NCBI GenBank assembly: GCA_964552635.1 | Contig: CAZKHB010000015.1 | Location: 15,619-79,618 of the forward strand | Length of the DNA: 64,000 nt | Origin: an uncultured Chthoniobacterales bacterium | Lineage (GTDB): Bacteria > Verrucomicrobiota > Verrucomicrobiia > Chthoniobacterales > Terrimicrobiaceae | Reading direction: 5' to 3' | Part shown: positions 22,889 through 41,523 of the stretch, in pieces | Position numbering within the stretch: position 1 is the first letter of the stretch | How the letters are laid out: each line of letters opens with the position of its first letter | The notes under the pieces: generated by a model | Seen by the model: the letters and a program-made list of their open reading frames with translations, nothing else | Told to the model about the DNA's origin: nothing | Databases searched by the model: none | Made by a program: the position numbers and the translations under genes

Positions 22889-24067
<1,179 letters not shown>

Positions 24068-24075
24068 GTCCCCCC

Positions 24076-24999
24076 ATGCGGGCCCTGCTCCACATCCGCC
24101 CCCCGGCCGGCGAACCGTTCGAAGTCGAGATCGGCAACACCGCCACCATCGGCCGCGGTCGTGACAACACGGTGAGCCTGGCGACGAGCCCGCTCGTCTC
24201 GCGCCAGCACGCCATCATCCGCTGCCACAACTCCTGGCAATACCAGATCATGGACCTCGGCAGCCGCAACGGGACGTTTGTGAACGGCCGCCGCGTCATC
24301 ACCCCAGTGACCCTCGACGAAGGTGCGGCCATCCGGGCCGCCGATACCGAGATCACCTTGCGCCTTCTGGAGTCCCCCGAGGCCGGGCCGCTCGCCGAAA
24401 TGACGATGGCCGCCGGGACGTCGGTCGCCGGCGACCACACAGCTACCGTCGCCGTCATGGTCTGCGACATCCGCGGCTTTTCCACGATGTCCGAGATCCT
24501 TCCCGAGGACCAACTCGCCCGCACACTCGGCGATTGGTTCCGCCAAGCGGGTGACATTTTGCAATCCGAGGGCGGCTCCATCGACAAATTCATCGGTGAT
24601 GCCGTCCTCGCCTATTGGGTGCAGGCGGCGGGCGAGCCCGGTGAGGAAGCCCGCCGTGCTTTTGCCGCCGGTGTGCGACTCCTTGAGACCGCCGCCGGAC
24701 GCCGCTGGCCGCACGATGCCACCGCCCCGTTCCGCATCGCCGTCGCGCTTCACCACGGGCCCGTCACCTGCGGAAACATCGGTCTCGTCGCCCAGCGCGA
24801 CGCCACGATCATCGGCGACACGGTGAACACGGTTTTCCGCATGGAGGGTGTGATGAAGCAATTCGACCAGCGCCTCACCGCCTCGGCAGATTTCGTCTCT
24901 CTCCTCGCCACGCCGGAACGCGAACGCTTCGAGGACCTCGGCGAACACCAACTCAAGGGCAAGAACCAGCACGTCCGCCTCGCCGGACTCCGCCCCTGA
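24076..24999 (+). CDS. FHA domain / class III adenylate-guanylate cyclase fusion protein
   Basis: N-terminal FHA (TIGRGRDNTVSL...VSRQHAIIR...IMDLGSRNGTFVNG). C-terminal cyclase (VMVCDIRGFSTMSE, KFIGDAVLAYW, GDTVNTVFRME). 8 nt after pilU. Confidence 0.75.
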   Translation: MRALLHIRPPAGEPFEVEIGNTATIGRGRDNTVSLATSPLVSRQHAIIRCHNSWQYQIMDLGSRNGTFVNGRRVITPVTLDEGAAIRAADTEITLRLLESPEAGPLAEMTMAAGTSVAGDHTATVAVMVCDIRGFSTMSEILPEDQLARTLGDWFRQAGDILQSEGGSIDKFIGDAVLAYWVQAAGEPGEEARRAFAAGVRLLETAAGRRWPHDATAPFRIAVALHHGPVTCGNIGLVAQRDATIIGDTVNTVFRMEGVMKQFDQRLTASADFVSLLATPERERFEDLGEHQLKGKNQHVRLAGLRP

Positions 25000-25003
25000 T
25001 CCC

Positions 25004-25414
25004 ATGCGCCACTTCAAACCCGGACGCGGCCCCTCGGCCATGGGTGCCTTCGGGGGCATCATCGGCGTGCTCTTCGGCATATTCTGGACCGTTATGGCCT
25101 ACTCGATGACGCGGAATGCCCCCGAGCCCTTCGCCACATTTTTCCCGTTGTTCGGCGTCCTGTTCGTCCTCGTCGGAATCGTGAATGTCGCCTACAACCT
25201 CTACAACGCGACGCAGAAGAAACGTCTCTCACTCCTCGATCTCACCTCGCCCTCCGAAGAGGCCGATCCGCTGGGGGAAATCGTCGACCGGACCGGGGGC
25301 GACGATGGCTCGGTCGAATCGAAACTCCGCGAACTCAATGCCCTCCGCGACAAAGGTCTCGTCACGGACACGGAATACGCCGCGCAACGTCAGCGCATCC
25401 TCAACTCCCTCTGA
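25004..25414 (+). CDS. membrane protein with C-terminal SHOCT domain
   Basis: Two TM helices, then KLRELNALRDKGLVTDTEYAAQRQRIL (SHOCT-like); 4 nt after the cyclase gene. Confidence 0.5.
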   Translation: MRHFKPGRGPSAMGAFGGIIGVLFGIFWTVMAYSMTRNAPEPFATFFPLFGVLFVLVGIVNVAYNLYNATQKKRLSLLDLTSPSEEADPLGEIVDRTGGDDGSVESKLRELNALRDKGLVTDTEYAAQRQRILNSL

Positions 25415-26141
25415 TCCCGCGCGGCGGGCGGAACGCCTGGAACCGCGTGGCCGGTGCGCCGCATTCCTCGAGGTCCCGCGAGAGGTCGCACAGATCGGAT
25501 TCCGTGAGCCCGTGGACCGTTGTGCGGAGTTCGAAGGGCTTGCCGCTGCGAAGGATGGCGGCCAGTGCGCTGCGGACGGATTCCTCGGCACCCCGCCGAC
25601 CGGTGAGCCGGCCATACCGCGCATCGAGCGGTGCCTTGATGTCGAGCCCGATCCAATCGAGATCGGGCAGGAGAGATTCCAGCCGCTCGGGGAAAGCTCC
25701 TGCGGTGTGAAGGCCTGCGAGGAATCCCATCGCGCGCACCTCGCGAATCGCACGTCCAAGTCCGGCCTGCGCCGTCGGCTCGCCGCCGCTGAAGACCACG
25801 GCTTCGAGAAATCCTTTGCGCTCGGCCAATGAGTCGCGCACCTCACTCCAAGTGAGAGTTCCCGCATGGAACGCTTGCAGGTGGGCATTGTGGCAATACC
25901 CGCACCGCCACGGGCAGCCCTGGCAAAAAACAACCGCTGCAAGACGGCCGGGGAAATCCACCGTTGTAAACGGCACGAACCCCCCGACCCGCAACTCGCA
26001 CGCCCCGCTCAAGCCGCTTTGCGGCAGGCGTGCGTCCGCGCCTCGACAAACGGCGTGCGTTCGCGGTGTTCGCTTTGTTTCCCGGCATTGAACTGCGAGA
26101 CCGGGCGGTGGTAGCCCATCACGCGCGTCCAAACTTCGCAT
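25401..26141 (-). CDS. nrdG: anaerobic ribonucleoside-triphosphate reductase activating protein (radical SAM)
   Basis: FTTVDFPGRLAAVVFCQGCPWRCGYCHN is the NrdG CxxxCxxC region. The true start is probably downstream of 26141 (TTG near 25994 possible). Confidence 0.7.
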   Translation of the reverse strand: MRSLDARDGLPPPGLAVQCRETKRTPRTHAVCRGADARLPQSGLSGACELRVGGFVPFTTVDFPGRLAAVVFCQGCPWRCGYCHNAHLQAFHAGTLTWSEVRDSLAERKGFLEAVVFSGGEPTAQAGLGRAIREVRAMGFLAGLHTAGAFPERLESLLPDLDWIGLDIKAPLDARYGRLTGRRGAEESVRSALAAILRSGKPFELRTTVHGLTESDLCDLSRDLEECGAPATRFQAFRPPRGIRGS

Positions 26142-26174
26142 TTCGTGCGTTCGGTTCGTTGGGTTTTCATGGAT

Positions 26175-27887
26175 TCATGCCGCGGCGGAAGGCGAAGCCG
26201 CGATCTCGGCATCGCACACGGGACAATACTCGTGCTCGCCGGCGAGGTAGCCATGGTGCGGGCAGATCGAGAACGTCGGGGTGATCGTCAGGTAGGGCAG
26301 CCGGAAGTTTGTGAACACCCGACGAATCAACTCCCCGCACGCACGGGCCGAGGAGAGCCGTTCGTTCATGTAAAGATGAAGCACCGTGCCGCCCGTGTAG
26401 CGCGTCTGGAGGTCGTCCTGATGCCGCAAAGCGACAAAGGGATCATCCGTCCAGCCGACCGGGAGCTGGGTGGAATTCGTGTAGAACGGGGCCTCCGGCG
26501 TCCCTGCTTGCAGGATACCCTCGAGATTCCGCTGGTCCATCCGCGCAAACCGGTAAGTCGCGCCCTCGGCCGGCGAGGCTTCCAAGTTGTAGAGGTGGCC
26601 GGTTTCCTCCTGGAACGCGACCATGCGGACCCGCATGTGATCGAGCACACGCAGGGCGAAGGCACGACCCCACGGCGTTGCGATGTGTTCCGAGTCCTTC
26701 GTGAAGTTCCGGATGCACTCGTTCATGCCGTTGATGCCAACCGTGGAAAAATGGTTCCGCAGCGTGCCCAGATACCGCCGCGTGAAGGGATACAGTCCGC
26801 GATCGATATGCTCCTGAATCACCCGGCGCTTGATCTCCAGACTCTGCCGCGCAAGCTCCATGAGGTGGTCGAGTCGCTCCAGAAGCGCCTCTTCGCGGCC
26901 CGAGAAAAGATACCCGAGCCGGGCGGCATTGATGGTCACCACGCCAATCGAACCGGTTTGCTCAGCCGAGCCGAAGAGGCCGTTCCCCCGCTTCAGCAAC
27001 TCCCGGAGGTCCAACTGCAACCGGCAGCACATCGAGCGCACCATGTTCGGCTTGAGCTCGGAGTTGAGAAAGTTCTGGAAATACGGCAGCCCGTACTTCG
27101 CGGTCACCTCAAAGAGAAGCTGCGCTGTCTCGCTCTCCCACGGGAAGTCCTCGGTGATGTTGTAGGTGGGAATCGGGAATGTGAACACCCGCTCGCGGGC
27201 ATCGCCGCGCGCCATCACGCGCAGGAACGCCCGGTTGATCAGATCCATCTCCGCACCCAACTCGCCGTAGGTGAACCCCGCCTCGCGTCCTCCGACATGC
27301 GCCGGCGTTTCCCGCAGGTCCTCCGGACAGACCCAATCGAATGTCAGATTCGTGAACGGCGTCTGAGTGCCCCAGCGCGAAGGCACGTTCAGATTGAATA
27401 CGAACTCTTGCAGGCCCTGCTCAACCTCCTCCGGCGACAATCGATCCGCCCGCACATACGCCGCCAGATACGTATCAACCGAACTGAACGCCTGCGCGCC
27501 CGCCCATTCGTTCTGCAGCGTACCCAAAAAGTTCACCATCTGCCCGAGTGCCGTGCGGAAATGCCGCGGCGGCGCCGACTCGACCTTGTTCGCCACGCCA
27601 TTGAACCCCTCCGCCAACAACTGCCGCAGCGACCACCCCGCGCAGTAACCCGAGAACATATCCAGATCATGAATGTGGATGTCCGCGTGCCGGTGCGCCT
27701 GGCCCACCGGCGGTGGATAAATGTGGTCCAGCCAATAGTTCGCCGTGAGCTTCCCCGCCGCATTCAGAATCATCCCCCCCAACGAATACCCCTGGTTCGC
27801 ATTCGCACTCACCCGCCAGTCCGTCCGACCGATGTATTCCTCAAGAACTTTCGCGGGATCAACAGACGTGGTCGGGATGTCGGACAT
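26175..27887 (-). CDS. nrdD: anaerobic ribonucleoside-triphosphate reductase
   Basis: 570 aa with a C-terminal glycyl-radical region (...RMDQRNLEG...) and zinc-ribbon tail CPHHGYLAGEHEYCPVCD. Confidence 0.85.
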   Translation of the reverse strand: MSDIPTTSVDPAKVLEEYIGRTDWRVSANANQGYSLGGMILNAAGKLTANYWLDHIYPPPVGQAHRHADIHIHDLDMFSGYCAGWSLRQLLAEGFNGVANKVESAPPRHFRTALGQMVNFLGTLQNEWAGAQAFSSVDTYLAAYVRADRLSPEEVEQGLQEFVFNLNVPSRWGTQTPFTNLTFDWVCPEDLRETPAHVGGREAGFTYGELGAEMDLINRAFLRVMARGDARERVFTFPIPTYNITEDFPWESETAQLLFEVTAKYGLPYFQNFLNSELKPNMVRSMCCRLQLDLRELLKRGNGLFGSAEQTGSIGVVTINAARLGYLFSGREEALLERLDHLMELARQSLEIKRRVIQEHIDRGLYPFTRRYLGTLRNHFSTVGINGMNECIRNFTKDSEHIATPWGRAFALRVLDHMRVRMVAFQEETGHLYNLEASPAEGATYRFARMDQRNLEGILQAGTPEAPFYTNSTQLPVGWTDDPFVALRHQDDLQTRYTGGTVLHLYMNERLSSARACGELIRRVFTNFRLPYLTITPTFSICPHHGYLAGEHEYCPVCDAEIAASPSAAA

Positions 27888-28075
27888 GGGGAGAAATCGG
27901 TGTTAAGCTCTACATCTGGTGGGTGGACTCCAAAAAATGTGCCGCATCTTGTGCACACGCCCGCCCGGACTTCCTTGATCGCCATCAAGCCCGGGTAGGA
28001 AAAAGCGGGGTCCTTTGTGCGAATCTCTCAGGAAGGCTTTGAGCCGGAACGCGGCTATCTTCTTTTCCTGACCCG

Positions 28076-28678
28076 TCAATCGTTCGACGGTACTACAATG
28101 GCTTCGACGGTGGCTTGTTTGCGCCCAAGCCGAGCAATACCAACAACACTAGCGATGAGAGCGGCAAAGTAGAGCGCAGCCCAAGTGGTCGGTCCCCAAG
28201 TTACCGAACCTCCAAAATCAGACAAGGAACCTTGGTCGTTCATGATTCGAATTGCAAAGAGGAGCGCGGGTGCGAAGAGCACCAGCGCGACTCCCTTCAA
28301 AATCTTCGAGACTGGGCGACGTATAACGATCAAAATGGCTGGCACGACGCTTCCAAGCAGAAGCGTGAACCATGCCACTGCTTTCTTACCAAAGAGTAAC
28401 CCTTCAATCTGCCGCTGTGCTTCCTGATGCACTCCGGCCATCGCTCCCAGTGCGGAGACGTCGAAGGAGATATTCAGAAGGGGAAAAAACAGTAGAATGA
28501 AGATGCTGACGTAAAACCCACCCAAAAAAGTCCTGCGGCCCGTAAGGTCGTCGGGTTTAAATGGGGAGAAGTTTATGTTTGGTTTGATGGTCTCGTTTGT
28601 GGTATTCATCGAATCGTTTGGGTTGGCGTGGAAATCTCGTAGCGAATGCTCATCTTGTTGCCGTCCGTCCCGACGCAC
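28076..28678 (-). CDS. hypothetical membrane protein (first gene of low-GC island)
   Basis: Four predicted TM helices; local GC about 53-58% against 65-70% in the flanks. Start uncertain (28678 or 28609). Confidence 0.45.
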   Translation of the reverse strand: MRRDGRQQDEHSLRDFHANPNDSMNTTNETIKPNINFSPFKPDDLTGRRTFLGGFYVSIFILLFFPLLNISFDVSALGAMAGVHQEAQRQIEGLLFGKKAVAWFTLLLGSVVPAILIVIRRPVSKILKGVALVLFAPALLFAIRIMNDQGSLSDFGGSVTWGPTTWAALYFAALIASVVGIARLGRKQATVEAIVVPSND

Positions 28679-28706
28679 GCCGGGGAATCACTGATCGGGC
28701 TTCTCG

Positions 28707-29348
28707 CTATGGAGCGCCCGGTCCGATGTCTTGTGTGAACTGCTGTCCACCATTCGCGAGAACGAGGGTGATTTTGTGAATCTTCAGATAGACCACCTTG
28801 CGTGTGGCGTAATTGATCGTTTCCTCCACGGATTTGTCGAGGGTGCCCGTGTATGTAATCGCGACGGTGCGTGACGACTTGAGAGCTGTGGCAGCCTTCT
28901 TGGCCTCCTCCAGTGGCACGGAGATATGGCTGACTTCTTGAGGGTTCGTGAACCGAACGACATAGTCGCCACGGAAAGGAATGAAGGAATCGGGCGCCGT
29001 GCCAGTCGGGAAAGCCTTTCTGGTGAAATCATAATCCTCAAGTTGCGTGCCTACGGTCACAGTGAAATCTTTTGTTTCCGCTGCCTCCTTGATGCGTCGA
29101 TCGATGACGGGGTTCAACTTCTCCAGAAATTCATGGCGCGAAAACTCGTCGCGCTGTTGGCGGTAGTCTGCACTCATCGACTCTGCGATGCGTTCTCGCG
29201 GCGTGGGGATGTCAGCCTTTACCTCGTAGAGTATGGCGACGGTCTGGTCTGTGATTTCACTTCCAGTGGCGATTCCCGCCAGTGCAATGCAAAGGAAGGA
29301 CGGCAACAGGCGGCGGGTCAAGTTCTCAAGGATGCTGATCATTCTCAT
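28707..29348 (-). CDS. hypothetical secreted protein
   Basis: MRMISILENLTRRLLPSFLCIALAGIATGSEI signal peptide; low-GC region. Confidence 0.5.
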   Translation of the reverse strand: MRMISILENLTRRLLPSFLCIALAGIATGSEITDQTVAILYEVKADIPTPRERIAESMSADYRQQRDEFSRHEFLEKLNPVIDRRIKEAAETKDFTVTVGTQLEDYDFTRKAFPTGTAPDSFIPFRGDYVVRFTNPQEVSHISVPLEEAKKAATALKSSRTVAITYTGTLDKSVEETINYATRKVVYLKIHKITLVLANGGQQFTQDIGPGAP

Positions 29349-29394
29349 CACACAAGCACGCGCAAAACCAACCGGCGGACGGACAGGCACAGGT

Positions 29395-29782
29395 TCAGAT
29401 TCCGCTGATCAGGACGAAGAGGAAAGCGACGCCGGCGAGGGTGAGAATTGCTGCATTGAGCAGAATCCCCGAAATGCCCAGTTTTCGGGCATTCATCGCA
29501 AAGGAAACGACTCCGAGCACCAAACCGACCAAGTGCACGATGAGGCCGAAAAAAGCCCATTGCCAGCAGTATCAGAAGATTCGCCCCTTCTCCGGGGGTT
29601 GCAGCAGCGAGGCATACGAACGCAAACGCGAGCAGGGGAAGGATACCGACCAGAGCGATGACGACAGAACAGACGCCGAAAATTCTCCCGCGCGATTTCG
29701 GGGTTGGTGGAAGAGGCGTCGGTGTCTGCACTGTGGGTGCGGGTTGGGGAACAGGCTCGTTGGGTAGTGCTTGATCACTCAT
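29395..29782 (-). pseudogene. small proline-rich/4-TM membrane protein gene (DUF4190-like) disrupted by +1 frameshift in A6/T6 homopolymer (29549-29554)
   Basis: Frame 0 reads MSDQALPNEPVPQPAPTVQTPTPLPPTPKSRGRIFGVCSVVIALVGILPLLAFAFVCLAAATPGEGANLLILLAMGFF, then R-rich junk. The -1 frame continues cleanly as GLIVHLVGLVLGVVSFAMNARKLGISGILLNAAILTLAGVAFLFVLISGI*. Deleting one T/A restores a 128-aa ORF. Confidence 0.5.
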
Positions 29783-29823
29783 CACTACAACCCGCGTGGA
29801 ACCAGGCGGAAAACGGACAGCGC

Positions 29824-30663
29824 TCAGTTCACGCCAAAATTCTGGACCCAGTAGGGGCCGCAGTTGCCGACGCCGAGGGTTTTGGCTTCGCGCCGAAGAA
29901 TGTTCTGTCGGTGGCCCGGGGATCGCATCCACATCGCGACGACTTCCTCTGGATTGGCTCCACTTTGGGCGATGTTTTCGCCTCGGGCCTTCAAGCTGAA
30001 GCGGCGCATGCGGGTTTGAGGATCGAGGGTGCCGGTTTTGCCGAGAGTTCGGTGATCAAAGTAGCGGAAGTTGGCCATGTGTGCCGCATGGAACCTCGCA
30101 GCGCGGGCGAGGTCCTCATCCCACTTCAGCGGCGGAAGGCCCCGCGCAGCGCGCTCGGCATTGGTGAGAGTGAGCACCCGCTTTTCTCTATGAACGCAGG
30201 CGGCACGAATGTCCTCCCGGCCGGTCGGAAGATCGGGCACAGGTGGCGCACGGAAGGCAACGTGTTGGACCGGCGTGCGTGAGCTGCGACTCCCGCAGCT
30301 CGGACGCTGAAGGGTCACCATACGCTCCCGTTGCGCCTGGGCTTCGACGAAGGCGGGAATGACTCCTGTGGCCTTAACATCCGAAGCGTTCACCCATGTG
30401 CTCCCGCTTGCCGCTCGGACCTCCGTACGGCCGTTCTCAGTGCGAAGGATGAGAACCGGGGTGCCAGGTTGCAGCACCGCGCTCCCTACAACCTCGCCGT
30501 GCAGGAATAGTGAAATGGGCGCTTGCGCGGTGAGCACGCCTCCTGTTTCCGCCCACACGAACAAGGGTGCCAAAAGCGTCAGAAGGGCTGCGATTTGAAG
30601 AGGTGCGTGACGCGTTAGTGCTCTTGAGCGGAAGTTTGGAAACTGGGCCACGACGTTTGTCAT
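29824..30663 (-). CDS. secreted SH3b-like + CAP/SCP (YkwD-type) domain protein
   Basis: Signal peptide LLTLLAPLFVWAETGGVLTAQA. SH3b-like GTPVLILRTENGRTEVRAASGSTWVNASDV. CAP domain LTNAERAARGLPPLKWDEDLARAARFHAAHM...MWMRSPGHRQNIL. Confidence 0.65.
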   Translation of the reverse strand: MTNVVAQFPNFRSRALTRHAPLQIAALLTLLAPLFVWAETGGVLTAQAPISLFLHGEVVGSAVLQPGTPVLILRTENGRTEVRAASGSTWVNASDVKATGVIPAFVEAQAQRERMVTLQRPSCGSRSSRTPVQHVAFRAPPVPDLPTGREDIRAACVHREKRVLTLTNAERAARGLPPLKWDEDLARAARFHAAHMANFRYFDHRTLGKTGTLDPQTRMRRFSLKARGENIAQSGANPEEVVAMWMRSPGHRQNILRREAKTLGVGNCGPYWVQNFGVN

Positions 30664-30684
30664 AGCGAGGGCGCCTCTGGAGCC

Positions 30685-31428
30685 TCAGTTCTGAGGACTT
30701 GCACCTTTACTCAGGGCGGTCTTCAGATCCTCGAAGCCGATTGCATCGGCGATTGTTTGGGCGGTAGGGTTCACGATTTTTGTTCCGCCGATCTCGATCG
30801 GAACGGGAATACCGGCTGGTTTTGCTGGGTTCGCACCGTGTTTCACCAGAGCCCTCACCAACTCGACCACCTTGTAACGATCGAGTTTGCCCCGCCCCTC
30901 GGCCAGCATTCGAACAATGCGGAGGAGCGGCGGTTCTTGGGGCATACACACACCTTGGTTCGGGTCCGCTCCCGCATCGAGCAGATACTCCAACTCACCC
31001 GGGCTCAGTTTTTCGGGGTAGCTGACGGCATTGTAGGACACGCGGGGGTCCGACAGACGATTTTGAACAAACTTCGGATCGGACCCACTTTCCACAAGGA
31101 GACGAAAGACGTCGATCCGGGACTCACTTTTGGGAACAAGATCCACAGCGGAACAGAGTGCATTCGTATTTAATCCATCCACAACAAACCCTGCGCTGGC
31201 GACTTCAGGGTGCTCCTTCAAACACGCTCGGATGGAACCAATTTCGCCCGACTTCAGGAGCTGAAGAAACTGCTCAACAGCATCGGGCGCTGCTGATTCA
31301 GCAGGCAGTGGTGCACACGCGAGGACGCTAACAAGAACCACGCCCAACGTAGCAATGCATCGTTTACGAATTGCAGCCAGAGGGGGTGAGGTATTCACAA
31401 TATGTAACGCGTGAGAACGTCTGCGCAA
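30685..31428 (-). CDS. secreted ankyrin-repeat-like protein
   Basis: Signal peptide followed by repeated helix-turn-helix segments such as LLVESGSDPKFVQNRL, YLLDAGADPNQGV and LVKHGANPAKPAG. Confidence 0.5.
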   Translation of the reverse strand: MRRRSHALHIVNTSPPLAAIRKRCIATLGVVLVSVLACAPLPAESAAPDAVEQFLQLLKSGEIGSIRACLKEHPEVASAGFVVDGLNTNALCSAVDLVPKSESRIDVFRLLVESGSDPKFVQNRLSDPRVSYNAVSYPEKLSPGELEYLLDAGADPNQGVCMPQEPPLLRIVRMLAEGRGKLDRYKVVELVRALVKHGANPAKPAGIPVPIEIGGTKIVNPTAQTIADAIGFEDLKTALSKGASPQN

Positions 31429-31473
31429 CGGACATGCTGTCTCGATTTTTTCATTCTCCCTGCGAAGTGGCCT

Positions 31474-31665
31474 TCACCGAACTAAACGGTTGCTTCTCGT
31501 GACGTGGCCCTCCGGGCAGACGTAACGCAAACCCTCCGTCGTGGCTCCCGGCTCATAGACTGCCGTTTTGCCGCATACGACGCAGGGGATTCCTCTTGTC
31601 GCTGGTTGACAGCCCGGGTGACCGAGTCCAAGGAATACCAGAAGGATAACAATGATGACGAGCAT
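31474..31665 (-). CDS. small signal-anchored zinc-ribbon-like protein (63 aa)
   Basis: MLVIIVILLVFLGLGHPGC then CVVCGK...YVCPEGH (CxxC...CPxxH). A truncated paralog lies at 36820-36912. Confidence 0.4.
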   Translation of the reverse strand: MLVIIVILLVFLGLGHPGCQPATRGIPCVVCGKTAVYEPGATTEGLRYVCPEGHVTRSNRLVR

Positions 31666-31759
31666 AGGTTGATCAGGTTGTTGATGATTCCACGAATCCG
31701 CATCCCTCGCGACGAGGACTCACTGAGATCGTGCGCAGAAAGCCCCATGAAACGGGCAA

Positions 31760-34700
31760 CTATTCCGTTTGCTTCGGGGGTTCGGCCAACGATTCTTTGG
31801 GAGAAAGCCCGAGATTCACGCGGATGAGCTTCCCGAGCAGCTCCGCGTTGATGTCGCCACCGATGGTTTTATGGCCCATCTTGAAGTCCTGGCGTGGTAG
31901 CATCCTCACGCGTGTGACATTTCCATTCGGCAAAGTCTTTTCCTGCACTGGGGCATCCGGAACGCTGCTTGTGATCAAGTCTCCCACTTCGTCATCGCGA
32001 TACTGGGCCACCCAATCCCAGGCCTCCTCACCTTTCAAAAATGAGTCGGTTCTCATTTGCCCATCTTGGTTCATCCAACCCTTTGCAGCCAAAAGCATGG
32101 TGCGTTCGAGTGTGGGAATCCCGCCGACCTCGGGCAAGAAGGCCTCCGTGGGGGAGATGAGCAAGAAACTGAGGGCAGGGTCATTGACGAGCTTCGGGTA
32201 GTCCCAGAGCACGAGTCCGGCCCCCAAAGAATTACCGACAATGAGAAACTTCTCGATCCCTGTTGCTTTCCGAATTTGCGACACGACGCTCTCTGCGATG
32301 CCCGGAAGGGGAAGCCTCACGGACTGATCACCGCCACGGTAGGTTTTAATCGTCTCGTTGACTTTATCAAATGGCGGTGCGTCGGGATAGCTCCAGAGGA
32401 AAAACGAGCACTGGTCAGGCAACAAATCCCCGAACCACTTCTCGTCCTTCAAAAGGGTGGCCACCATCTCTTGAGAACCCGAGTGACCGAAGAAAATCAC
32501 ACCAATGGGTCCTTTTCCAAGACGGGTAACCTCAAGCACCTGACCACTGACAGTAATCGGGAGCAGTGTGTGCAGACTGGTCGCGACCGCATCTCGTTGG
32601 CTTTGGGATCGCTGAACAGCTCCGGATGCCGAATTGTGTGACTGTTCTTTGCCCGTGGGACTGCTGGAATCTTGATTCCCGGAGCTCGTCATGCCTGCTG
32701 AGGATGTTGCAGGTTTTGTCAAAACAAAGGTTGTTTCCGTAAGTCCGCCTTCAGTGACTCTGTAGAATAGAGCAGAGGGTTTCAGCGGGTCGAAAGGAAT
32801 TGGGATTTCGAACCATTCCTTATAAGTCGCATAGGGTCTTTTCGGACAAACGACAATCTTTCCATCTTTCTGGAACGCCTGCCACTCTTGCAGTTCTATT
32901 TCCGCATCATCAACACTCTGAGATCTGCTACCTGACCAGATAGGAAAACTGCGGATGACCTCGCCGCTGGATTTGAAATCGTAAGTGTGTGCTGTGGCGT
33001 GGGTTCCTGTTTTCCATGGGCCGACAAGCTCACGTGGAACCCCGGGAGTCGAACCTTGCGACGAGGGAGGGCCAAGTATGGCACTGCCTGAAGGCTCCTG
33101 CCGGTTCCTTTCAGCTTTTGATTCTGCACCCTTGGTAAAGAAACCGACACGGCTGATCGAGCCTTGAAATGATTTCCCGTTCCGCGGGAAAGCAAAGAAC
33201 GACCGCCCCTCTCCTGCTTTCATCACAACGCCTGCGGGCAGTTCGGTGCGGGTCGTTTGACCATCCACGCTGAGTTCGAGCGCCCCATCTCTGCACTCGG
33301 CAACTATGTTGTGCCATGTGTCGGGTGCCGCAGGAGCGGTTGCAATGGTGTACCCGTTCTTGTGGTAAACGATGAAACTCACAGACCGCCGATCCGCCAT
33401 ATAATCCACTGCGAAAACAGCACAGCGAAGAACAGGAACCGGCCCATCCATTGAGGAGGAAGGGTTCATTCCCATCTCGATCCGGATCGGTTGGCCTTCA
33501 GCCCAGTTGAACTCATCCAACGAGCCGAGTGCTTGCTCGGTCCCGCCGTACAGCCGCAGACTGCGACCACCGGGCGCGGAGCGATCATCCTCAAGGGAGG
33601 CCCAATCCTTCAGTTTTGCCCCCTTCGTAGAGGCTTCGAGCCCCTTTGTTCCCGAGACACTTATCTTTGATGCGGAGGCTCGTGCTTTGCTGAAATCCCA
33701 TATCATCACTTCTTCACTCAGATCTCCGAGACCTGAATGGGTCGATCTCGCTACGGAAGGCTCCGCAAGCGCAGGCGGAGGAGCACCTGCCTCTTGGTCC
33801 GTAAAGCTCTGTGATGCCGGAGGGGCAGGGCCTGCTTCCGCTGCTGGTAGAGCTGGACTGGCTGCACTTCGTGTCGTCACCCGGATTTTTCCTATCGAGC
33901 CTGAGAAGGCTTGATTCTCGAAGGAGTGTGTTACAAGAGCTTTGGCGCTCCCGGCTCGCATGATGATGTCGCTGGGTAAGTTTTTCCGGACGGTTTCACC
34001 GTTAACAGTGATTTCAAGCAAGCCTTCTTTGTAGGCTGCTTTGACGTTGTTCCATGCGTCAAACGTGAGCTGAGTATCGACCTTCGAGTATTTGTTTGAC
34101 TCGTTCCAGACAAGGAATTGAAGAGTTCTTGACTCGGAGAGGAGGCGAAGCTCAAAAGAATTCGCGAACCGTAAAATGCGCACCGTGGATCTATTTGCCT
34201 CGGAGGGATTAAGGTCGATCTCGATCTGAACTTCGGCTCCTTTTTCGATATCGATCGAAGCCTTTGAAGAAAGTTTCTGATTCGCGGTTCCGTCGAAGCG
34301 CACTGCCCTACCGTTTGGTGCCTTCTCATCAACGACAACATTTGCCCAGTCAGGACCTTCACCAACCAGCGATCCCCCGAAAAGATCTGGCTCATTCGGA
34401 ACAGTGATCGAATCTTTGCTTTTACGTGCTTTGCTGAAATCCCAATCAGCGAGGGTGCTTCCGCCAGTAAAGGTCGTCCCACCTTTTGCCTCAGGTGCTG
34501 GAGCAGCCGAGACAGTGGTGGCAGCTGGTTTGGACGATTCCAACTGCTCGGTCAACTCAAGGACTGCGAGATCCACCCAGTTATCAAGATTCTTCCAACG
34601 GATGTGAACTTGGTGATCCTTCCTTTCCGCAATGGTGACGACTGTTCCTGGCGGCAAAGTCATCGTTCCCGCAGCTTTACCATCGACCTTCACCGTCATT

Positions 34701-34897
34701 GAAACGGAGACTTTCAAACGCGCCGCTTTGCCAGAAGACCTTTCCAAGCCTTGGGCCGGGGTAGAATGGGATACTCCAGATGCCACTTGCTGCTGAGCGT
34801 GAAGGTGAGGGCTGAAAGAAACTACCAGCAGCGTGATCCAGAGTTGGAATTGAGCTTTCATTGGGTCATTGGGTTTACGGAATGAGATCGGACTCAC
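31760..34897 (-). CDS. giant secreted protein: signal peptide, SH3b-like, two LamG-like (concanavalin-type) domains, C-terminal alpha/beta-hydrolase (esterase)
   Basis: Probable start at MKAQFQLWITLLVVSFSPHLHAQQ (34861). LamG repeats WDFSKARKS...RILRFANSFELRL... and MIWDFSKARASAS.... Esterase FFGHSG ... LIVGNSLGAG (GxSxG). GC about 47-52%. Confidence 0.65.
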   Translation of the reverse strand: MSPISFRKPNDPMKAQFQLWITLLVVSFSPHLHAQQQVASGVSHSTPAQGLERSSGKAARLKVSVSMTVKVDGKAAGTMTLPPGTVVTIAERKDHQVHIRWKNLDNWVDLAVLELTEQLESSKPAATTVSAAPAPEAKGGTTFTGGSTLADWDFSKARKSKDSITVPNEPDLFGGSLVGEGPDWANVVVDEKAPNGRAVRFDGTANQKLSSKASIDIEKGAEVQIEIDLNPSEANRSTVRILRFANSFELRLLSESRTLQFLVWNESNKYSKVDTQLTFDAWNNVKAAYKEGLLEITVNGETVRKNLPSDIIMRAGSAKALVTHSFENQAFSGSIGKIRVTTRSAASPALPAAEAGPAPPASQSFTDQEAGAPPPALAEPSVARSTHSGLGDLSEEVMIWDFSKARASASKISVSGTKGLEASTKGAKLKDWASLEDDRSAPGGRSLRLYGGTEQALGSLDEFNWAEGQPIRIEMGMNPSSSMDGPVPVLRCAVFAVDYMADRRSVSFIVYHKNGYTIATAPAAPDTWHNIVAECRDGALELSVDGQTTRTELPAGVVMKAGEGRSFFAFPRNGKSFQGSISRVGFFTKGAESKAERNRQEPSGSAILGPPSSQGSTPGVPRELVGPWKTGTHATAHTYDFKSSGEVIRSFPIWSGSRSQSVDDAEIELQEWQAFQKDGKIVVCPKRPYATYKEWFEIPIPFDPLKPSALFYRVTEGGLTETTFVLTKPATSSAGMTSSGNQDSSSPTGKEQSHNSASGAVQRSQSQRDAVATSLHTLLPITVSGQVLEVTRLGKGPIGVIFFGHSGSQEMVATLLKDEKWFGDLLPDQCSFFLWSYPDAPPFDKVNETIKTYRGGDQSVRLPLPGIAESVVSQIRKATGIEKFLIVGNSLGAGLVLWDYPKLVNDPALSFLLISPTEAFLPEVGGIPTLERTMLLAAKGWMNQDGQMRTDSFLKGEEAWDWVAQYRDDEVGDLITSSVPDAPVQEKTLPNGNVTRVRMLPRQDFKMGHKTIGGDINAELLGKLIRVNLGLSPKESLAEPPKQTE

Positions 34898-34988
34898 CCA
34901 TACATGCGCGGAATCGGGGGGCTAACGGACAGGACAATAGCCGAAAGCCACTTGTCCGTTTATACGAAATTTTTGCGCATGAGAAAGC

Positions 34989-36014
34989 ATGAGAACTTCT
35001 CAATATCTCTTCTTAGGCCTCATTCACAGGAGAAAGCCTTTTGGTCCTTGGTACGCACTTCGCAGCCTCTTTTGCGGAATGGTTATCGCTTGTGTCAGCA
35101 TGGCTGCCGGTTGGACAGCAGACTTTAAGCCAGCAGGGCGCTGGGAGGGTGCTGGGAAGGGAATTTTCGGGATGCGATACGAGATGCGGCTCGACTTGGC
35201 TGAAGATGGATCGGCCACATTGGTGTATGCCGATGAGGAGCCACCGCATACCCTGAATTCCGATTTTCAGCGCAACCTCATACGGGCCACCGGTCAATGG
35301 TCGTTCGCAGACGATACTGTGCATCTGGACATTTCCGTCCGAGAGTGGAAGCGGCAATTAGGAAACGATGAACCGGTTGATGTGGAGCCGACTGATGTCG
35401 GACTCTCATTGGATACAGCATTCAGTAAGCCAAAGCCGCCGCGTGGTCGTGGGATTAAGGACAGCGAACTGTTCCTCCAAAAAGATGGCACGCTACTGCA
35501 AGCGATGATGACCTTTACCGGTTCTTGGCCAATTGGGGCCGGCGCCATTCCTTTCGCTCGTATGGCCTCGGGGGTTAAGCTAAAACGGATCGACCAACTG
35601 AAGCAGCCCGATCCTGTCGGCGAGTGGATATTCGAAGATGCCGGTCGAGAGCTTTCCTTGTGCTTTTGGGAGTCCGGTGAGGGTGCTGGGGAGTTCTCAA
35701 CGCCGGATGGTGATGTCATCCAATTGGATGGAGAATGGGAGGTCATCACCGACGGACGGTGGAAAGATCACGTGCTATGGAGGGGAAGAGTGGTCTACTG
35801 GGCCAAGTCTGGCAACCCAGTGACACCCTCGGATGGACAGTTCGAATTCGTGCTATCGGTAGAACCGTCGAAACTCAGTCTGATCCGAGGCGGAAATCTC
35901 AAGGCTGCGGACGGAACAGAACTTCCGATCCACGGCCCGAACGGAAATGCCAGCCCGGTTTTCCGAAGGCAGAACGACCAACGCCCCACCCACCGCACAC
36001 CGGGGAATGCGTGA
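34989..36014 (+). CDS. hypothetical protein with internal two-fold repeat
   Basis: Only plus-strand gene in the island. Repeated modules GQWSFADDTVHLDISVREW... and GEWIFEDAGRELSLCFWES.... Likely start MVIACVSMAAGW. Confidence 0.4.
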   Translation: MRTSQYLFLGLIHRRKPFGPWYALRSLFCGMVIACVSMAAGWTADFKPAGRWEGAGKGIFGMRYEMRLDLAEDGSATLVYADEEPPHTLNSDFQRNLIRATGQWSFADDTVHLDISVREWKRQLGNDEPVDVEPTDVGLSLDTAFSKPKPPRGRGIKDSELFLQKDGTLLQAMMTFTGSWPIGAGAIPFARMASGVKLKRIDQLKQPDPVGEWIFEDAGRELSLCFWESGEGAGEFSTPDGDVIQLDGEWEVITDGRWKDHVLWRGRVVYWAKSGNPVTPSDGQFEFVLSVEPSKLSLIRGGNLKAADGTELPIHGPNGNASPVFRRQNDQRPTHRTPGNA

Positions 36015-36055
36015 TGTTCCTTCAGGCGAAGCTCTCGTCTCGCGTTTATTGACGA

Positions 36056-36613
36056 TCAACGCGACCTCACATACACCGTGCGCGACTCGATGTGGAGCCA
36101 GGCACCAATCAGAAGCAGGATGATCGCAAGGGCGACCGCGACGATGCCAAGAAAGTAGAGGATGGGTGCGAGGATAGCGCCGAAACCCGATGTGACAAGC
36201 AGAGCTGCTCCTCCGCGAAGCAGTCCCACCCGGCGGATGACGAACCATATGAGACCTCCAGCTGTAATGACGGCGGCGGCAAGAAGCAGTGTCCAGCCAG
36301 TTGTTTCTGACGAGCGCAGCGAGAGCGCACCGTAGAAGGCCCAGAGCGCGACACCCGACCAAAGACACGTGAACCAACGAATCGGCTTCCAGTCCCGGTA
36401 GGGTTCGTTACGGCCGCGAAGAAGGTGGTTGAGTCCATTGACGGTCATGACGAAGACGGCCACGAAAAGGGCGATCAATAGCAGGAGCGCCAAGACGACT
36501 CCGATTCCCACCCACAGCTTTTGCTCGGAGGAGATGGTCTCATAGAAAGCGGCAGCCTGTTCAAGGAGTGGATCGAGTTTCGCAATCCATACGCTGATAT
36601 AGTGTTCACTCAT
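36056..36613 (-). CDS. hypothetical polytopic membrane protein
   Basis: MSEHYISVWIAKLDPLLEQAAAFYETISSEQKLWVGIGVVLALLLLIALFVAVFV... with several TM helices. The track ORF reads in-frame upstream into a pseudogene remnant. Confidence 0.5.
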   Translation of the reverse strand: MSEHYISVWIAKLDPLLEQAAAFYETISSEQKLWVGIGVVLALLLLIALFVAVFVMTVNGLNHLLRGRNEPYRDWKPIRWFTCLWSGVALWAFYGALSLRSSETTGWTLLLAAAVITAGGLIWFVIRRVGLLRGGAALLVTSGFGAILAPILYFLGIVAVALAIILLLIGAWLHIESRTVYVRSR

Positions 36614-36669
36614 AGGGGTTAGGTTTGGGAATCGTGGAGGCACATCCGGCAACAGATCGGGCGTCAATG

Positions 36670-36765
36670 GGAACCGAAGTTCTGGACCCAGTAGGGAAAT
36701 CGGCGCTTGCGCGGTGAGCACACCTCCTGTTTCGGCCCACCCAAGCAAGGGTGTCAAGAGCATCA
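36670..36765 (-). pseudogene. internally deleted remnant of a CAP-protein gene paralog (signal-peptide region fused to last ~9 codons)
   Basis: 36699-36769 is about 85% identical to 30511-30581 (encoding WAETGGVLTAQAPISL). 36676-36697 matches the CAP gene 3' end (PYWVQNFG, 29845-29866), out of frame. Confidence 0.5.
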
Positions 36766-36819
36766 GATGGACAACGACGCGGGAAGCCGCCAGACCTTTG
36801 GATTTTCCCAGCAGCGGAG

Positions 36820-36912
36820 CTAGAACTTGCAGGGGATTCCTCTTGCCGATAGTTCACAGTCAGAGTGACCGAGTCCGAGGAAGACTAGAAGGATAACAAT
36901 GAGGACGAGCAT
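36820..36912 (-). pseudogene. truncated paralog of the small zinc-ribbon gene (30 codons then stop)
   Basis: Encodes MLVLIVILLVFLGLGHSDCELSARGIPCKF*. 36835-36930 is about 85% identical to 31580-31675. Confidence 0.5.
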
Positions 36913-36966
36913 GAGTTGACCAGGTTAGGTTTCGCAAGTTTCCGGTTCTCGTTGCTGCGAGAGAGT

Positions 36967-39900
36967 TCACTGGGGAAGAACGGGCTGGCTTGGATTCTCC
37001 GCGCGCTGGGTCGCCTCATACCGCCTGCGGGAGGATACGGGGTCGGGTTCCGGTTCACTGCTCCAGCGAAGACAGCCGATGGATCCGGCGAACGACCGAC
37101 CCTCGGACGCGTGGGCGGTCAGGAGTTGAGCAAGCCCGGCCTGCATCTTCATATCCTCGGGGAGAGGTTTGCGGACCGACTTCCCGTTGATCGTCAGCTC
37201 CAGAGCATCCTCTCGATACTCCGCGACGACCTTGTTCCAAGCGTTGAAGTCCACGCTGGCCATGACGACGGCACTCTCCTGGTGAGCGCGCCAAATGATG
37301 AACTCGATGCCTCCTTTTTCGGTTCGGAGGCGGAGTTCGAAGCAGTTCGCAAAGCGAACCAAGCGTCTGTTGGAGTCATTGGCATCCGAGGGGTTGATAT
37401 CCATTTCGATTTTGAAGTTTTGTCCTTCGGCCAGTTCGAACTGCCTGCTGGATGCGAGACGTTGATCGGGGGATCCAGAGAAGCGGACGGCGCGGCGTCC
37501 GGGCGCGGCGGGGTCGTCGACCACCTCGGCCCAAGCGGCGTTTTGACCCATCAGATTCACGGGAGCCTTGCCAACGCCCGGGATGATGAGTGAGGAACTC
37601 AACCTCTTTGCTTGGCTGAAGTCCCAACTGGCAATGACATTGCCGGGTTGGTGATCTCCATCGGCTTCCGAGAGAGGCTCGGGCGCAGTGTTAGATTTCA
37701 CGCTGGGAGTGGCCGTGCCGGGGAGGCTGTCAAACAGCGGGCGAACCTCCCGGAGGAGGAGCCAGTTGACGATGTCGGGACCATCAAAGGCGTTGCGGCC
37801 CTTGTAGGGTTCGGCGTCGTCCTCGGGGAGGTTGAGGGATTGTCGGGCGAGGTCGTAGGCGGCCCGGGCCGCTGTGGGGTCGCCGATTTTCAGGAGGCAG
37901 GCGGCGCGGAGGATGTGGATGCCGGGTTGTTTATTCGAAATCTCGGCCTCGCCCGACTCCGCGAGCGCTTGATCGAAGATCCGGAGGGCGTCCGTGAAGT
38001 TGCCGTCGCGGTACTCGACGAGTCCATTCATGAAGCGCGTCCAGTGAGGCGAGCTGTTTCTGAGCTCGGGCGCATTTTTGGCGGAGCGCGTCACGGCACA
38101 GCGGGCCAATACTTTGCGAGCACCGTCGATCTGCGCCGGGACTTCAACGGGGGTCAGAAGGGCGGTCAGGACCGCGCGCTCAGCGATATCCGGCCGCGTA
38201 GGCATGTTGTCGCAATTCGCCACGGCATAGGCGAGCATGCGCTGCCGTGTGCGACTGTAGGCCTCCGTTTTGCCGAACCAGACCTCGAGGCCTCCGAGCA
38301 TCATATTGACGAGCGTATCATCGTTCATCCACGGGCCACACTGCTGAAGTTCGGCGAGACCTTCCTGCGTTCGCCCGAAATGAAGAAGGGCGCGGCCGAG
38401 AAAACTCCGGGCGTGCGCAGTGCTGCGGTTCTCTTTTCCCAACACGCGGTCCATTCGCGGGACGAGATCTTCGCCGATCCGGAGAGCGCGGTCGGGCACT
38501 TTTGAAATGTAAAGCCGCTCCAGCAGTCGCGACTCGGAGGCGAGGGTGTCGGCGTGGTCGGGCCCGAAGATGCGTTTTCTCGCTTCCGAGAGTTCTTCTT
38601 GAAGCCGGATGGCATCGCGCCAGCCCCCGCTGCGCCAGTTGAAGAAGGCGAGGGTTTCCTTGTCTTGGATGGTGATGAAGTGGGTGGGGCCGTATTTCCT
38701 TTCGAGGATATCAACGAGATCTCTCTGCACCCGGATCGCCTCCTGTCCACGACCGGATCCATAGTATGTGTCGGCGAGTTTTCTGAGGACTTGGATCGTG
38801 TCGGCGCTGTCCGGTCCGGTGTTCACCCGGCTGGCTTCGAGTTCCGCTTCGAGGCTGACAATGCGCTGGCGGGCGCGCTCGTGGCGTTCCTCGTCCGTGG
38901 GTGGCGGACCAGAAGGCTCCGGGCGGTTGATGCGAGTTGGTGTCGGGCGGGGTTTTGCCCCGGTGGAAACAAGCAGGCTCTCGATCTGCTGCTGCAAAGC
39001 CTCCATCGTGCGGGGATCAGCAGTGCCCGAGCGGGTCCGCAGTTCGACCAGCCGCCGAGAAGCGGTCAGCGCCTCGGAGTAGTAGCCCCGGGCATTAAGA
39101 AGGTTGGCCAGACGAGTGAGGATTCCGAGGGACTGCGGCGAATCCTCCCCGGTGGCTTGAGTCGAAAGAGCCAGTGCCTCTTTGTAGAGTTCTGTGGCTT
39201 CCGGATAGGCTCCGAGGTTCATCTGAGTGTCGGCGAGCACGGCTTTGAGAAACGCCTTGCGCTCTGGTTGGTCGGCGGGCAAAGCATCGAGCTTGGCATT
39301 GGCCTTCTGCAGCGCCTCGGCAAGGGTGATGTTGCGGCTGTTTTTCTCGGGATCGGGAAGGCGAAAAACGTCGACGAGGAGTCCGCTGACGGATTCGGAG
39401 TTTTGCAGGGCGCGTGCCTTCTCGGACTCCGCTCTCTGGGATTCCGCAAGCAAACGCCGTGCTTCGGCCTCTGCGTGAGATGCGCGAATGGCCAGCAGTG
39501 CGCTGACTACTGTCGCTGTGACGAGGATGGCTGCGAGTAACCCTGCGATGAACAACCCAGTCCGATGCCGACGGGCGAAGGTCGAGAGCAGGTAGGCCGG
39601 AGTGGGAGCGCGGGCCGTAACCGGTTGCTGCGTGAGAAATCTTTCAACGTCTGCCGCAAACGCGTCGGCCGACGCATAACGCCGGTCGCGGTCTTTTTCC
39701 AAGGCCTTCACCGCCACCCAGTCCAATTCCTTCGTCAGGCTGACGGGAAGCGTTTCGGACGTGAGAACCCGAGCGGCTGCGATCTCAGCGCGGACTTCCT
39801 GCGGGAGCTTGCGAAAACGCAGCGACGGCCGGAGCGGCTCCGATTCCAAGACGGTACGGCGCAACTCGTCTACCCCACCCACGAGGAGGGCCTTCGGGTC

Positions 39901-40719: not shown

Positions 40720-40801
40720 CTCCAGCGCTTCCAAAAAAATATCTTCTGCCGAACTCTTCACTGATTCCTCATGCGCTGTAGCGAGCCCAGAGCGGACACT
40801 G

Positions 40802-41350: not shown

Positions 41351-41523
41351 GGACAATTGGCTCTCCGGGTTGCTTAGCCGAACACCCGTCCTCTGGATAT
41401 CGAAAACTGGAGAGCCTCTTCGGATGGGTGGCCCTGTGGCGCGGTGTTGAATCCCCACCCCGAATGCCAACGCGGGCGTCATTTCCCCTTGCGCGACGGG
41501 GGGTTTGGGGTTCCATTCGCGGC

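Follow-up and report, generated by a model that had tools for sequence, protein, structure and literature searches.

Gene content of the locus

A 64-kb window of DNA from an uncultured Chthoniobacterales bacterium, referred to here as the window, contains a GC-poor stretch of ~9 kb (positions 28076 to 36950) that lies between nrdD, the gene for an anaerobic ribonucleotide reductase, and a gene pair encoding a Hanks-type Ser/Thr kinase and an ECF43-like extracytoplasmic function (ECF) sigma factor. On balance, we consider it probable, with some reserve, that this stretch is the flexible, mosaic accessory arm of the sigma factor/kinase locus in Chthoniobacterales and that it is situated at a synteny breakpoint.

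All genes of the locus are on the minus strand except P341, and every product of the stretch carries a signal-like or transmembrane (TM) segment, as judged from the hydrophobicity of the translations, which bears out the secreted and membrane gene content that a preliminary description of this DNA had reported. The left boundary is nrdD itself (26175 to 27887; PF13597, 567 bits), which is host-like, with a GC content at third codon positions (GC3) of 0.80, and which bounds the stretch on the side where that edge had been placed. It is followed by TM200 (28076 to 28678; GC3, 0.55), a predicted 4-TM membrane protein with four hydrophobic segments, which would shorten to 149 aa if started at 28525 instead and which has no match in Pfam, NCBIfam, or PADLOC. 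Next is an exported protein of 227 aa (28707 to 29390) with an N-terminal hydrophobic segment and a DUF4852 domain (PF16144, 35 bits against a cutoff of 22.8) that had previously gone unnamed. Then come a frameshifted gene for a small 3-TM membrane protein (29395 to 29782), a secreted SH3b-like CAP/SCP protein with an N-terminal signal peptide (29824 to 30663), and an exported ankyrin-like protein of 247 aa, Ank247 (30685 to 31428; signal-like segment at residues 20 to 38; GC3, 0.55). These are followed by a 63-aa peptide, Zn63 (31474 to 31665), in which an N-terminal TM helix precedes a zinc-ribbon-like CxxC...C..H tail; its zinc-ribbon matches in Pfam and NCBIfam are weak and below cutoff.

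LamG1045 (31760 to 34897), a protein of 1045 aa, is assembled from a signal peptide, an SH3b-like module, two LamG domains, a middle domain, and a C-terminal alpha/beta serine hydrolase. P341 (34989 to 36014, plus strand) is an exported protein with no Pfam match and no assigned fold, whose N-terminal part aligns over 209 aa, at 29% identity, with a gene of an ECF-kinase locus on another contig (L088; handles of this form designate the contigs and loci that we compared). The membrane protein p185 (36056 to 36613) has three strongly hydrophobic segments and is contained in a 235-aa open reading frame (ORF; 36056 to 36763) that extends it artifactually through the remnant of a second CAP gene. 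In that remnant (36674 to 36777) the signal-peptide region is joined to the last ~8 codons, and beyond it lies the remnant of a second Zn63 gene (36829 to 36926), which is read for 30 codons (translation, MLVLIVILLVFLGLGHSDCELSARGIPCKF) before a stop. The right boundary is the kinase gene (36967 to 40719, with the longest ORF extending to 40917; Pkinase, 143 bits; TPR_12; Laminin_G_3, 26.0 bits, just below its cutoff of 27.6), and the sigma factor gene lies at 40802 to 41350 (PF07638, 132 bits; TIGR02999, 174 bits against a cutoff of 126).

Domains of the encoded proteins

The CAP and LamG assignments in the preliminary description stood up to model searches. The CAP domain (PF00188) scores 75.4 bits against a cutoff of 21.1 over residues 164 to 266, and the two LamG domains of LamG1045 exceed their Pfam cutoffs (Laminin_G_3, Laminin_G_2; 43.1 against 27.6 bits for domain 1 and 23.9 against 22.9 bits for domain 2). 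The LamG domain of the neighboring kinase (about 37030 to 37650), to which those of LamG1045 are paralogous, aligns to the other LamG copies with 20 invariant columns. For Ank247, the ankyrin assignment holds by score (Pfam Ank, 22.1 bits against a cutoff of 21.1) but not by extent, as the match is limited to 14 residues and Ank_3 and Ank_4 remain below cutoff; three LLxxGADPN-type motifs are discernible by eye.

The SH3b assignment likewise survives at the level of fold but not of Pfam recognition. The CAP protein, LamG1045, and their relatives have in common an N-terminal module of ~65 residues. No Pfam SH3 model matches the N termini of CAP or LamG1045 even at an E value of ≤10. An AlphaFold2 (AF2) model of the module, built from a 5-sequence alignment, has a pLDDT of 89, and all of its top 50 Foldseek matches in the PDB are SH3 domains, including the bacterial structures 2krs, 2kt8, and 3npf, at target-normalized TM-scores of 0.5 to 0.7 and weak E values of 0.02 to 0.1. 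The models thus support an SH3-type barrel, at fold level, for the N-terminal module of CAP. The protein resembles bacterial YkwD-like CAP/SCP proteins with SH3b domains in its PF00188 domain, its N-terminal signal peptide, and its small all-beta SH3-like module. It differs from them in that its best NCBIfam match, TIGR02909 (YkwD, 93 bits), is below the model cutoff, in that its SH3-like module goes unseen by the Pfam SH3 models, and in that this module also occurs here in LamG-hydrolase proteins and in a kinase, P0057. These domains had been described as eukaryote-like and suggestive of host interaction, a reading that we do not retain, for they are common bacterial versions (a YkwD-type CAP below cutoff, Laminin_G_3, and SH3b-like).

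What had been called an esterase at the C terminus of LamG1045 is an alpha/beta hydrolase by predicted fold (AF2 pLDDT, 93; all Foldseek PDB matches are alpha/beta hydrolases) and falls short of recognition by Pfam Abhydrolase_1 (19.5 bits against a cutoff of 25.8); a PDB sequence search with LamG1045 returned nothing significant. Twenty sequences of the domain all retain G119-N-S121-x-G123, D130/D182, and H240, and from this conservation and the modeled fold we judge the serine hydrolase to be probably active. It resembles known alpha/beta serine hydrolases, such as zearalenone lactonase, valacyclovir hydrolase, and XC6422, in its core fold, its GxSxG elbow, and its conserved Asp and His. Unlike them, it is very divergent, with TM-scores of only 0.3 to 0.4, and the domain of this family is always C terminal in modular extracytoplasmic proteins or kinases.

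Frameshift, remnants, and the extent of decay

The preliminary description had noted one frameshifted gene, two duplicate remnants, and decay, and each of these is visible in the sequence. In the frameshifted gene, two adjacent frames both encode hydrophobic helices and meet at GGGCTTTTTTCGG, with the change of frame at a T6 run (~29549 to 29554). The sequence is identical in three assemblies, so the frameshift is probably real and the gene a probable pseudogene. The Zn63 remnant is 86% identical over 98 nt to 31582 to 31679, the 5' end of Zn63. The CAP remnant matches the intact CAP gene in two pieces (36692 to 36770 to 30508 to 30586 at 86%; 36674 to 36696 to 29834 to 29856 at 91%), with ~650 nt deleted internally, and it lies directly upstream of p185, the same place that an intact CAP gene occupies in the closest relative found, L082.

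Taken together with the chimeric ORF tail, the artifactual ORF extension, and several ORFs that are without detectable relatives, these lesions could be read as signs that the whole stretch is decaying, largely nonfunctional DNA, in which relaxed selection at the scar of a rearrangement has let AT-biased mutation lower the GC content and has left most ORFs as relics. We find that quite improbable. LamG1045 is an intact ORF of 1045 aa with invariant catalytic residues and relatives 57 to 79% identical; all listed ORFs of the stretch have a lower GC2 than GC1, as expected for coding sequence; and CAP and p185 are 70 to 79% conserved at the amino acid level with L082.

Composition, edges, and assembly

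GC content is 55.4% in the stretch and 62.9% in the rest of the window. In 1-kb windows it falls from 0.61 to 0.67 in the flanks to 0.50 to 0.58 at ~27.5 to 37.5 kb, with a local recovery to 0.61 to 0.62 at 29.5 to 31 kb, where the CAP gene forms a bump of 62% GC inside the dip, and the lowest-GC 8.9-kb window of the 64 kb begins at 27801. The GC3 of genes is 0.55 to 0.67 in the stretch and 0.70 to 0.86 in the flanks, which locates the drop in codon choice. The GC-normalized dinucleotide distance delta*, 71.7 for the stretch, reaches at most 53.1 among 39 other 8.9-kb segments, the 64 kb of host sequence being the standard against which composition was compared. GC, GC3, and delta* thus agree on an atypical, GC-poor island of 9 kb at 28076 to 36950, as had been proposed, although the contrast between 45 to 58% and 65 to 72% in sampled 60-nt blocks was overstated: the direction is right, and the 10th to 90th percentiles are 48 to 63% in the stretch and 55 to 72% in the two flanks (Mann-Whitney P = 4e-32). 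The right edge had been placed inside the kinase gene or beside it. Although lower in overall GC, the kinase's LamG part has a host-like GC3 of 0.70, so that the composition changes at the kinase stop codon, beside the gene, and a position inside the gene was rejected; in evolutionary terms, the LamG part is better seen as a captured piece (see below).

These deviations in GC, GC3, and dinucleotides favor a classic horizontally acquired island, in which a lower-GC donor would have contributed the 9 kb as a single block, inserted between nrdD and the kinase gene, with decay to follow. We nevertheless hold such a single insertion to be unlikely, in the first instance because the customary signatures are missing. 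Pfam, NCBIfam, and PADLOC scans of the ORFs of the stretch found no mobility genes (integrase, transposase, conjugation, or phage), and the 64-kb window contains no tRNA or tmRNA, in agreement with the earlier statement that no integrase, transposase, or tRNA stands at either edge. No pair of direct repeats brackets the edges, and Rfam gives no match at the gathering threshold anywhere in the window, including no riboswitch upstream of nrdD. A prophage or viral origin was rejected, given the absence of phage genes and of any relatives of the DUF4852 protein and Ank247, the two genes searched, among viral contigs (IMG/VR). A defense-system reading was rejected as well, since PADLOC yields only generic kinase-domain matches (PD-T4-6 and similar) and none for the proteins of the stretch.

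That the compositional step might instead be a chimeric join of two organisms' contigs in a metagenome bin is suggested by the uncultured source organism and by a Logan contig, L001, that ends just beyond nrdD. This explanation has next to no chance of being correct, and we rejected it. Contig L083 from another assembly matches 26967 to 44881 and covers both edges, L001, from another assembly and a different run, matches 26096 to 37887 and covers the left edge, and each does so with a single mismatch and no gaps; genes that we regard as ancestral, moreover, stand on both sides of the low-GC genes.

The adjacent sigma factor and kinase

The ECF gene is directly upstream of the kinase gene on the same strand, with no anti-sigma factor, and the same pairing is found in L082, L084, L088, L089, L093, L099, and L104. 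The kinase has one TM helix (residues 457 to 475), extracytoplasmic TPR repeats, and a C-terminal LamG domain (GC3, 0.70 to 0.72). The sigma factor reads LNTTALVHEVWLRL where canonical ECFs have DAED, with NTTA taking the place of that motif (LNTTALVHEVW; aligned by eye), and the second Thr of NTTA is invariant in all seven of the sigma factors compared from other contigs. An adjacent Hanks kinase and an uncharged QTTA-type motif define the ECF43 group of sigma factors, in which phosphorylation of the motif Thr allows binding to RNA polymerase (PMC8999054, PMC13147305). By PF07638/TIGR02999 and by its motif, the sigma factor appears to be ECF43-like, with the other kinase-associated groups, ECF59 to ECF62 and ECF217, as remaining candidates.

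The pair is thus comparable to EcfP-PknT of Vibrio parahaemolyticus and EcfK-PknS of Xanthomonas citri, in which a sigma factor likewise stands beside a transmembrane Hanks kinase without an anti-sigma factor and has a region 2.2 that lacks DAED and carries xTTA with a conserved Thr (PMC8999054, PMC13147305). Known ECF43-type kinases have varied extracytoplasmic sensor domains, and the known modules have colocated targets, namely, polymyxin-resistance genes for EcfP and a type VI secretion system (T6SS) for EcfK. The module in the window differs from these in its host, a soil-type Verrucomicrobium, in its sensor of TPR repeats and an apparently recently captured LamG domain, and in its neighbors, fast-changing SH3b/LamG/Sel1/RCC1-hydrolase and CAP proteins; phosphorylation and regulon are here predicted from the genes. 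Predictions showed no enrichment of sigma-70-like promoters or terminators relative to shuffled sequence.

Ancestral and lineage-specific genes at a synteny breakpoint

Among 80 genome loci with relatives of nrdD, the best matches belong to uncultured Chthoniobacterales/Chthoniobacter, at 89% and 82%, and to Spartobacteria, at 75%. The loci L002 (89%), L003, L004 (75%), L036, and L073 have only nrdD in common with the window, together with nrdG where the contig reaches that far, so that a comparison of nrdD-then-kinase synteny finds no syntenic left flank in relatives and hence no empty site to compare. We also observed identities of 70 to 75% between NrdD and many of its proteobacterial counterparts, which places these almost as near to it as the NrdDs of other Verrucomicrobia; nrdD-nrdG (25401 to 27887, minus strand) may itself be mobile or lie in rearrangement-prone DNA. 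A generic kinase domain is found near nrdD/nrdG in L002 (12930 to 13559) and in L036 (8395 to 9264).

The closest relative, L082, is a 62-kb contig that carries the nearest kinase ortholog, P0003. Its gene order is ECF (plus), LamG433 (minus), kinase (plus), GYF-TM-LamG-RCC1 (plus), p185 (minus), CAP (minus), nitroreductase, Band7, polyprenyl synthase, LOG, S1/P1 nuclease, and LacI. To the right of the kinase, the window has ECF, nitroreductase, Band7, polyprenyl synthase, LOG family, S1/P1 nuclease, and LacI, and then a polysaccharide-utilization region; the block from nitroreductase to LacI is 80% identical between the two at the DNA level and 77 to 94% at the protein level. The left flanks are unrelated (GT4, STAS, and GT2 in L082; nrdDG, SHOCT, FHA-cyclase, and type II secretion system [T2SS] ATPase in the window). 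Because of these unrelated left flanks, and because nothing beyond nrdD and nrdG is common to the window and the nrdD relatives, we place the stretch at a synteny breakpoint.

Several of its genes are nonetheless old residents of the locus. The p185 protein is 79% identical to its L082 counterpart (81% in nucleotides) and has the same orientation to the nitroreductase block. CAP is 70 to 73% identical in amino acids and 72% in nucleotides to L082 CAP267, which stands beside the same block. P341 ends in 34 codons that match residues 1006 to 1039 of the L082 RCC1 protein at 76% identity and remain convergent with p185. Since CAP, p185, and the RCC1 tail are already present in the L082 locus, we take them to be ancestral (~1.75 kb, ~20% of the stretch). 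The L082 locus lacks counterparts of TM200, the DUF4852 protein, the ankyrin-like protein, Zn63, the LamG-LamG-hydrolase protein, and most of P341. The absence of most of the genes from that locus is what a single insertion would predict, but the presence of CAP, p185, and the RCC1 tail inside the stretch is not, and there is no absence as a block with an intact empty site, L082 holding part of the genes. The discrete acquired cassette of the preliminary description accordingly finds no support here: CAP, p185, LamG-type proteins, and the P341 tail are already at the L082 locus, and ancestral genes interleaved with lineage-specific ones do not constitute a discrete cassette. The ECF-kinase module is inverted relative to L082 and in the window occupies the interval from the CAP remnant to nitroreductase, a relocation that, from the two gene orders, would require at least two inversions, or an inversion and a transposition.

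The LamG domain of the kinase

The kinase orthologs in L082, L084, L088, and L089 are 1002 to 1080 aa long and end after the TPR region, with no LamG domain; P0003, the closest (76% identity, 1030 aa), is among those without it. Residues 47 to 1076 of the window kinase align to the L082 kinase at 72%, and residues 1074 to 1294 align at 39% to residues 106 to 324 of the next L082 gene. The aligned segments are 325 nt apart in L082, and this interval, which includes the kinase stop codon and encodes a GYF domain and a TM helix, is absent from the window. As 325 is of the form 3n + 1, its loss puts the two L082 reading frames in register, and the fusion keeps the topology, since both LamG domains are extracytoplasmic, downstream of a TM helix. 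The alignments therefore suggest that the kinase captured its LamG domain from the downstream gene by a deletion fusion. The order of kinase tail and then LamG recurs in L085, where a kinase-tail fragment (53%) is followed by a gene whose LamG domain is 54 to 61% identical to that of the window kinase. The LamG modules of the stretch are paralogous to a sensor that is resident at the locus, a relationship that speaks against delivery of the 9 kb from outside as one block.

A modular hydrolase family near ECF-kinase pairs

A word-indexed homolog search with LamG1045 returned only LamG1045 itself, and an exhaustive HMMER search with the whole protein yielded 149 related clusters, the best of which was P0044 (57%). 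Most of the clusters match the C-terminal hydrolase domain only, and ~100 of the 149 represent the hydrolase family. In these relatives, the N-terminal modules joined to the hydrolase domain are Sel1, LamG, FGE-sulfatase, RCC1, GYF, and HHH, and in P0057 the hydrolase domain forms the C terminus of a kinase. Different combinations of GYF, RCC1/WD40_RLD, Sel1, LamG, PKD, and hydrolase modules are clustered on the Verrucomicrobia-like contigs L105 (2770 to 17415) and L104 (4847 to 7791), a pattern more suggestive of a repertoire of shuffling domains than of fixed gene families.

In 6 of 13 independent loci, namely, the window, L088, L089, L093, L099, and L104, a hydrolase-family gene has an ECF-kinase pair no more than 6 kb away. 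The pair is divergent from the hydrolase gene in L088 and convergent with it in L089, stands within 6 kb in L093 and L099, and has the hydrolase gene directly downstream in L104; in L085, a kinase fragment adjoins a gene of the family. As these loci were counted without a background rate of adjacency, we regard the enrichment as indicative rather than proven.

The GC deficit recurs at such loci. The GC3 of accessory genes is 0.58 to 0.62 in L082 (kinase/ECF, 0.74 to 0.80), 0.52 to 0.59 in L088 (ECF/kinase, 0.73), 0.27 to 0.49 in L093 (ECF/kinase, 0.56 to 0.61), and 0.56 in L099 (ECF, 0.70). In L087, a short contig with no ECF-kinase pair visible, the family member has a GC3 of 0.71 and the only neighboring gene 0.90. 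Its recurrence in several genomes makes the deficit typical of accessory genes of this kind and fits fast turnover or weak codon selection; by the same token, a low-GC accessory pattern that recurs at like ECF-kinase loci elsewhere argues against a singular insertion in the window. A dip deeper than that of the window was seen in L093 (4266 to 6844, equivalent to L084 8 to 2535), where two genes of ~300 aa and 541 aa, without Pfam domains and divergent from the ECF-kinase pair, have 35 to 37% GC (GC3, 0.27 to 0.31) on a contig of 47.5% whose pair has 52 to 55%.

Other figures point toward a foreign contribution. The contigs of the nearest hydrolase-domain relatives have 54% (L089), 56% (L088), 55% (L099), and 58% (L085) GC, the range in which the 55% of the stretch falls. 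Relative to the window, L089 has a hydrolase identity of 73%, an ECF identity of 67%, and a kinase identity of 38%, and L088 has values of 50%, 72%, and 43%, so that hydrolase identity does not track ECF/kinase identity. Both observations favor a single insertion as well, and they give some support to transfer among related lineages. In L089, an ISL3-family transposase stands immediately upstream of a Sel1-hydrolase homolog with the 73% identical domain (3140 to 4756); it is a possible vehicle for the exchange of accessory genes and counts in favor of the acquired island.

Evolution and possible function of the proposed accessory arm

In the reading that we prefer, a flexible accessory arm at the sigma factor/kinase locus, the ancestral fifth of the stretch (SH3b-CAP, p185, and the LamG-RCC1 tail that now ends P341) would have been scrambled within the locus. 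The ECF-kinase module would have been relocated and inverted, the Zn63-CAP segment duplicated with decay of one copy, and the LamG domain of the downstream gene fused in frame to the kinase by a deletion of ~325 nt. The remainder would consist of lineage-specific exported and membrane genes drawn from a modular repertoire (SH3b-like, LamG, Sel1, RCC1, FGE-sulfatase, GYF, and alpha/beta-hydrolase) that appears to recur beside ECF-kinase pairs of like type in other genomes. The low GC may then reflect rapid gene turnover, by recombination or transfer among related and often lower-GC Verrucomicrobia, together with weak codon selection.

That the neighboring genes form the regulon of the sigma factor/kinase module is a tentative proposal, one that we would sooner doubt than assert. 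The extracytoplasmic TPR-LamG part of the kinase would sense an envelope or extracellular cue, the kinase would phosphorylate the conserved Thr of the NTTA motif, and the activated sigma factor would transcribe the adjacent exported-protein genes, including that of the serine hydrolase with its sensor-paralogous LamG. With LamG domains of one type, sensor and hydrolase may recognize a related ligand, possibly a glycan in view of the polysaccharide-degrading repertoire of the organism. A wider generalization is speculative, and we doubt that it holds: that, in Verrucomicrobia, ECF43-like loci carry fast-diversifying, GC-poor cassettes of exported proteins, in which SH3b, LamG, Sel1, RCC1, and FGE-sulfatase modules accompany a dedicated serine-hydrolase domain, and that ligand-binding modules swap between the targets and the kinase sensor, as in the LamG capture and in the hydrolase domain of kinase P0057, to create new input specificity matched to the outputs.

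A number of observations weigh against our preferred reading or its parts. The dinucleotide signature, the most deviant in the window, fits foreign DNA equally as well as it fits fast turnover. None of the loci compared contains a relative of TM200, the DUF4852 protein, Ank247, or Zn63, and with L082 as the only close relative, either gene order may be the derived one. The orthology of the fused LamG domain rests on position, since its identity to the L082 domain is only 38 to 40%. No ECF-kinase pair occurs in the available flanks of L097, L098, L101, L102/103, and L105 (5 of the 13 loci), and these genomes probably encode many such pairs, so that some of the adjacency may be due to chance. 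Finally, no promoter motif common to the ECF upstream region and the intergenic regions of the stretch is evident by inspection, so that it is adjacency that carries the regulon link.

With genomic islands and flexible islets, the stretch shares lower GC, atypical dinucleotides, surface and exported genes, a synteny breakpoint, and decay. It differs from genomic islands in having no integrase, tRNA, or direct repeats, in its interleaving with ancestral genes, and in a content of clade-native domain families linked to the neighboring regulator. As a flexible region adjoining a signaling module of an established class, it is rather unremarkable in kind. Its value lies partly in a caution for island calls, given that a clear GC dip with exported "eukaryote-like" domains led here to a native, rearranged accessory region. 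An uncharacterized family of modular extracytoplasmic serine hydrolases that repeatedly neighbors phosphorylation-controlled ECF sigma factors in Verrucomicrobia also constitutes a testable link, and for this class of sigma factors, few of whose signals and targets are known, the locus provides a candidate regulon together with an example of how a sensor domain evolves.

Observations in the flanks

Long shadow ORFs lie opposite real genes, among them one of 617 aa opposite nrdD (26145 to 27998, plus strand) and one of 1.4 kb opposite the ECF/nitroreductase region. We rejected them as genes given their high GC1 and low GC3, which are typical of such ORFs in high-GC genomes. Two smaller GC dips (55 to 59%) occur at 47313 to 48371 (minus strand), at a GH130 gene, and at ~61000 to 62500, close to where an MFS sugar transporter begins. 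The two dips fall inside the polysaccharide-utilization region, which comprises LacI, GH130, GH5, GH3, rhamnosidase, SSF and MFS transporters, and a DUF1559/N-methyl protein. In the left flank by nrdG (22889 to 25414, plus strand) are a T2SS/type IV pilus (T4P)-type ATPase (T2SSE), an FHA-domain adenylate/guanylate cyclase, and a SHOCT-domain protein; the FHA domain is a second Ser/Thr-phospho-signaling element close to the kinase locus.

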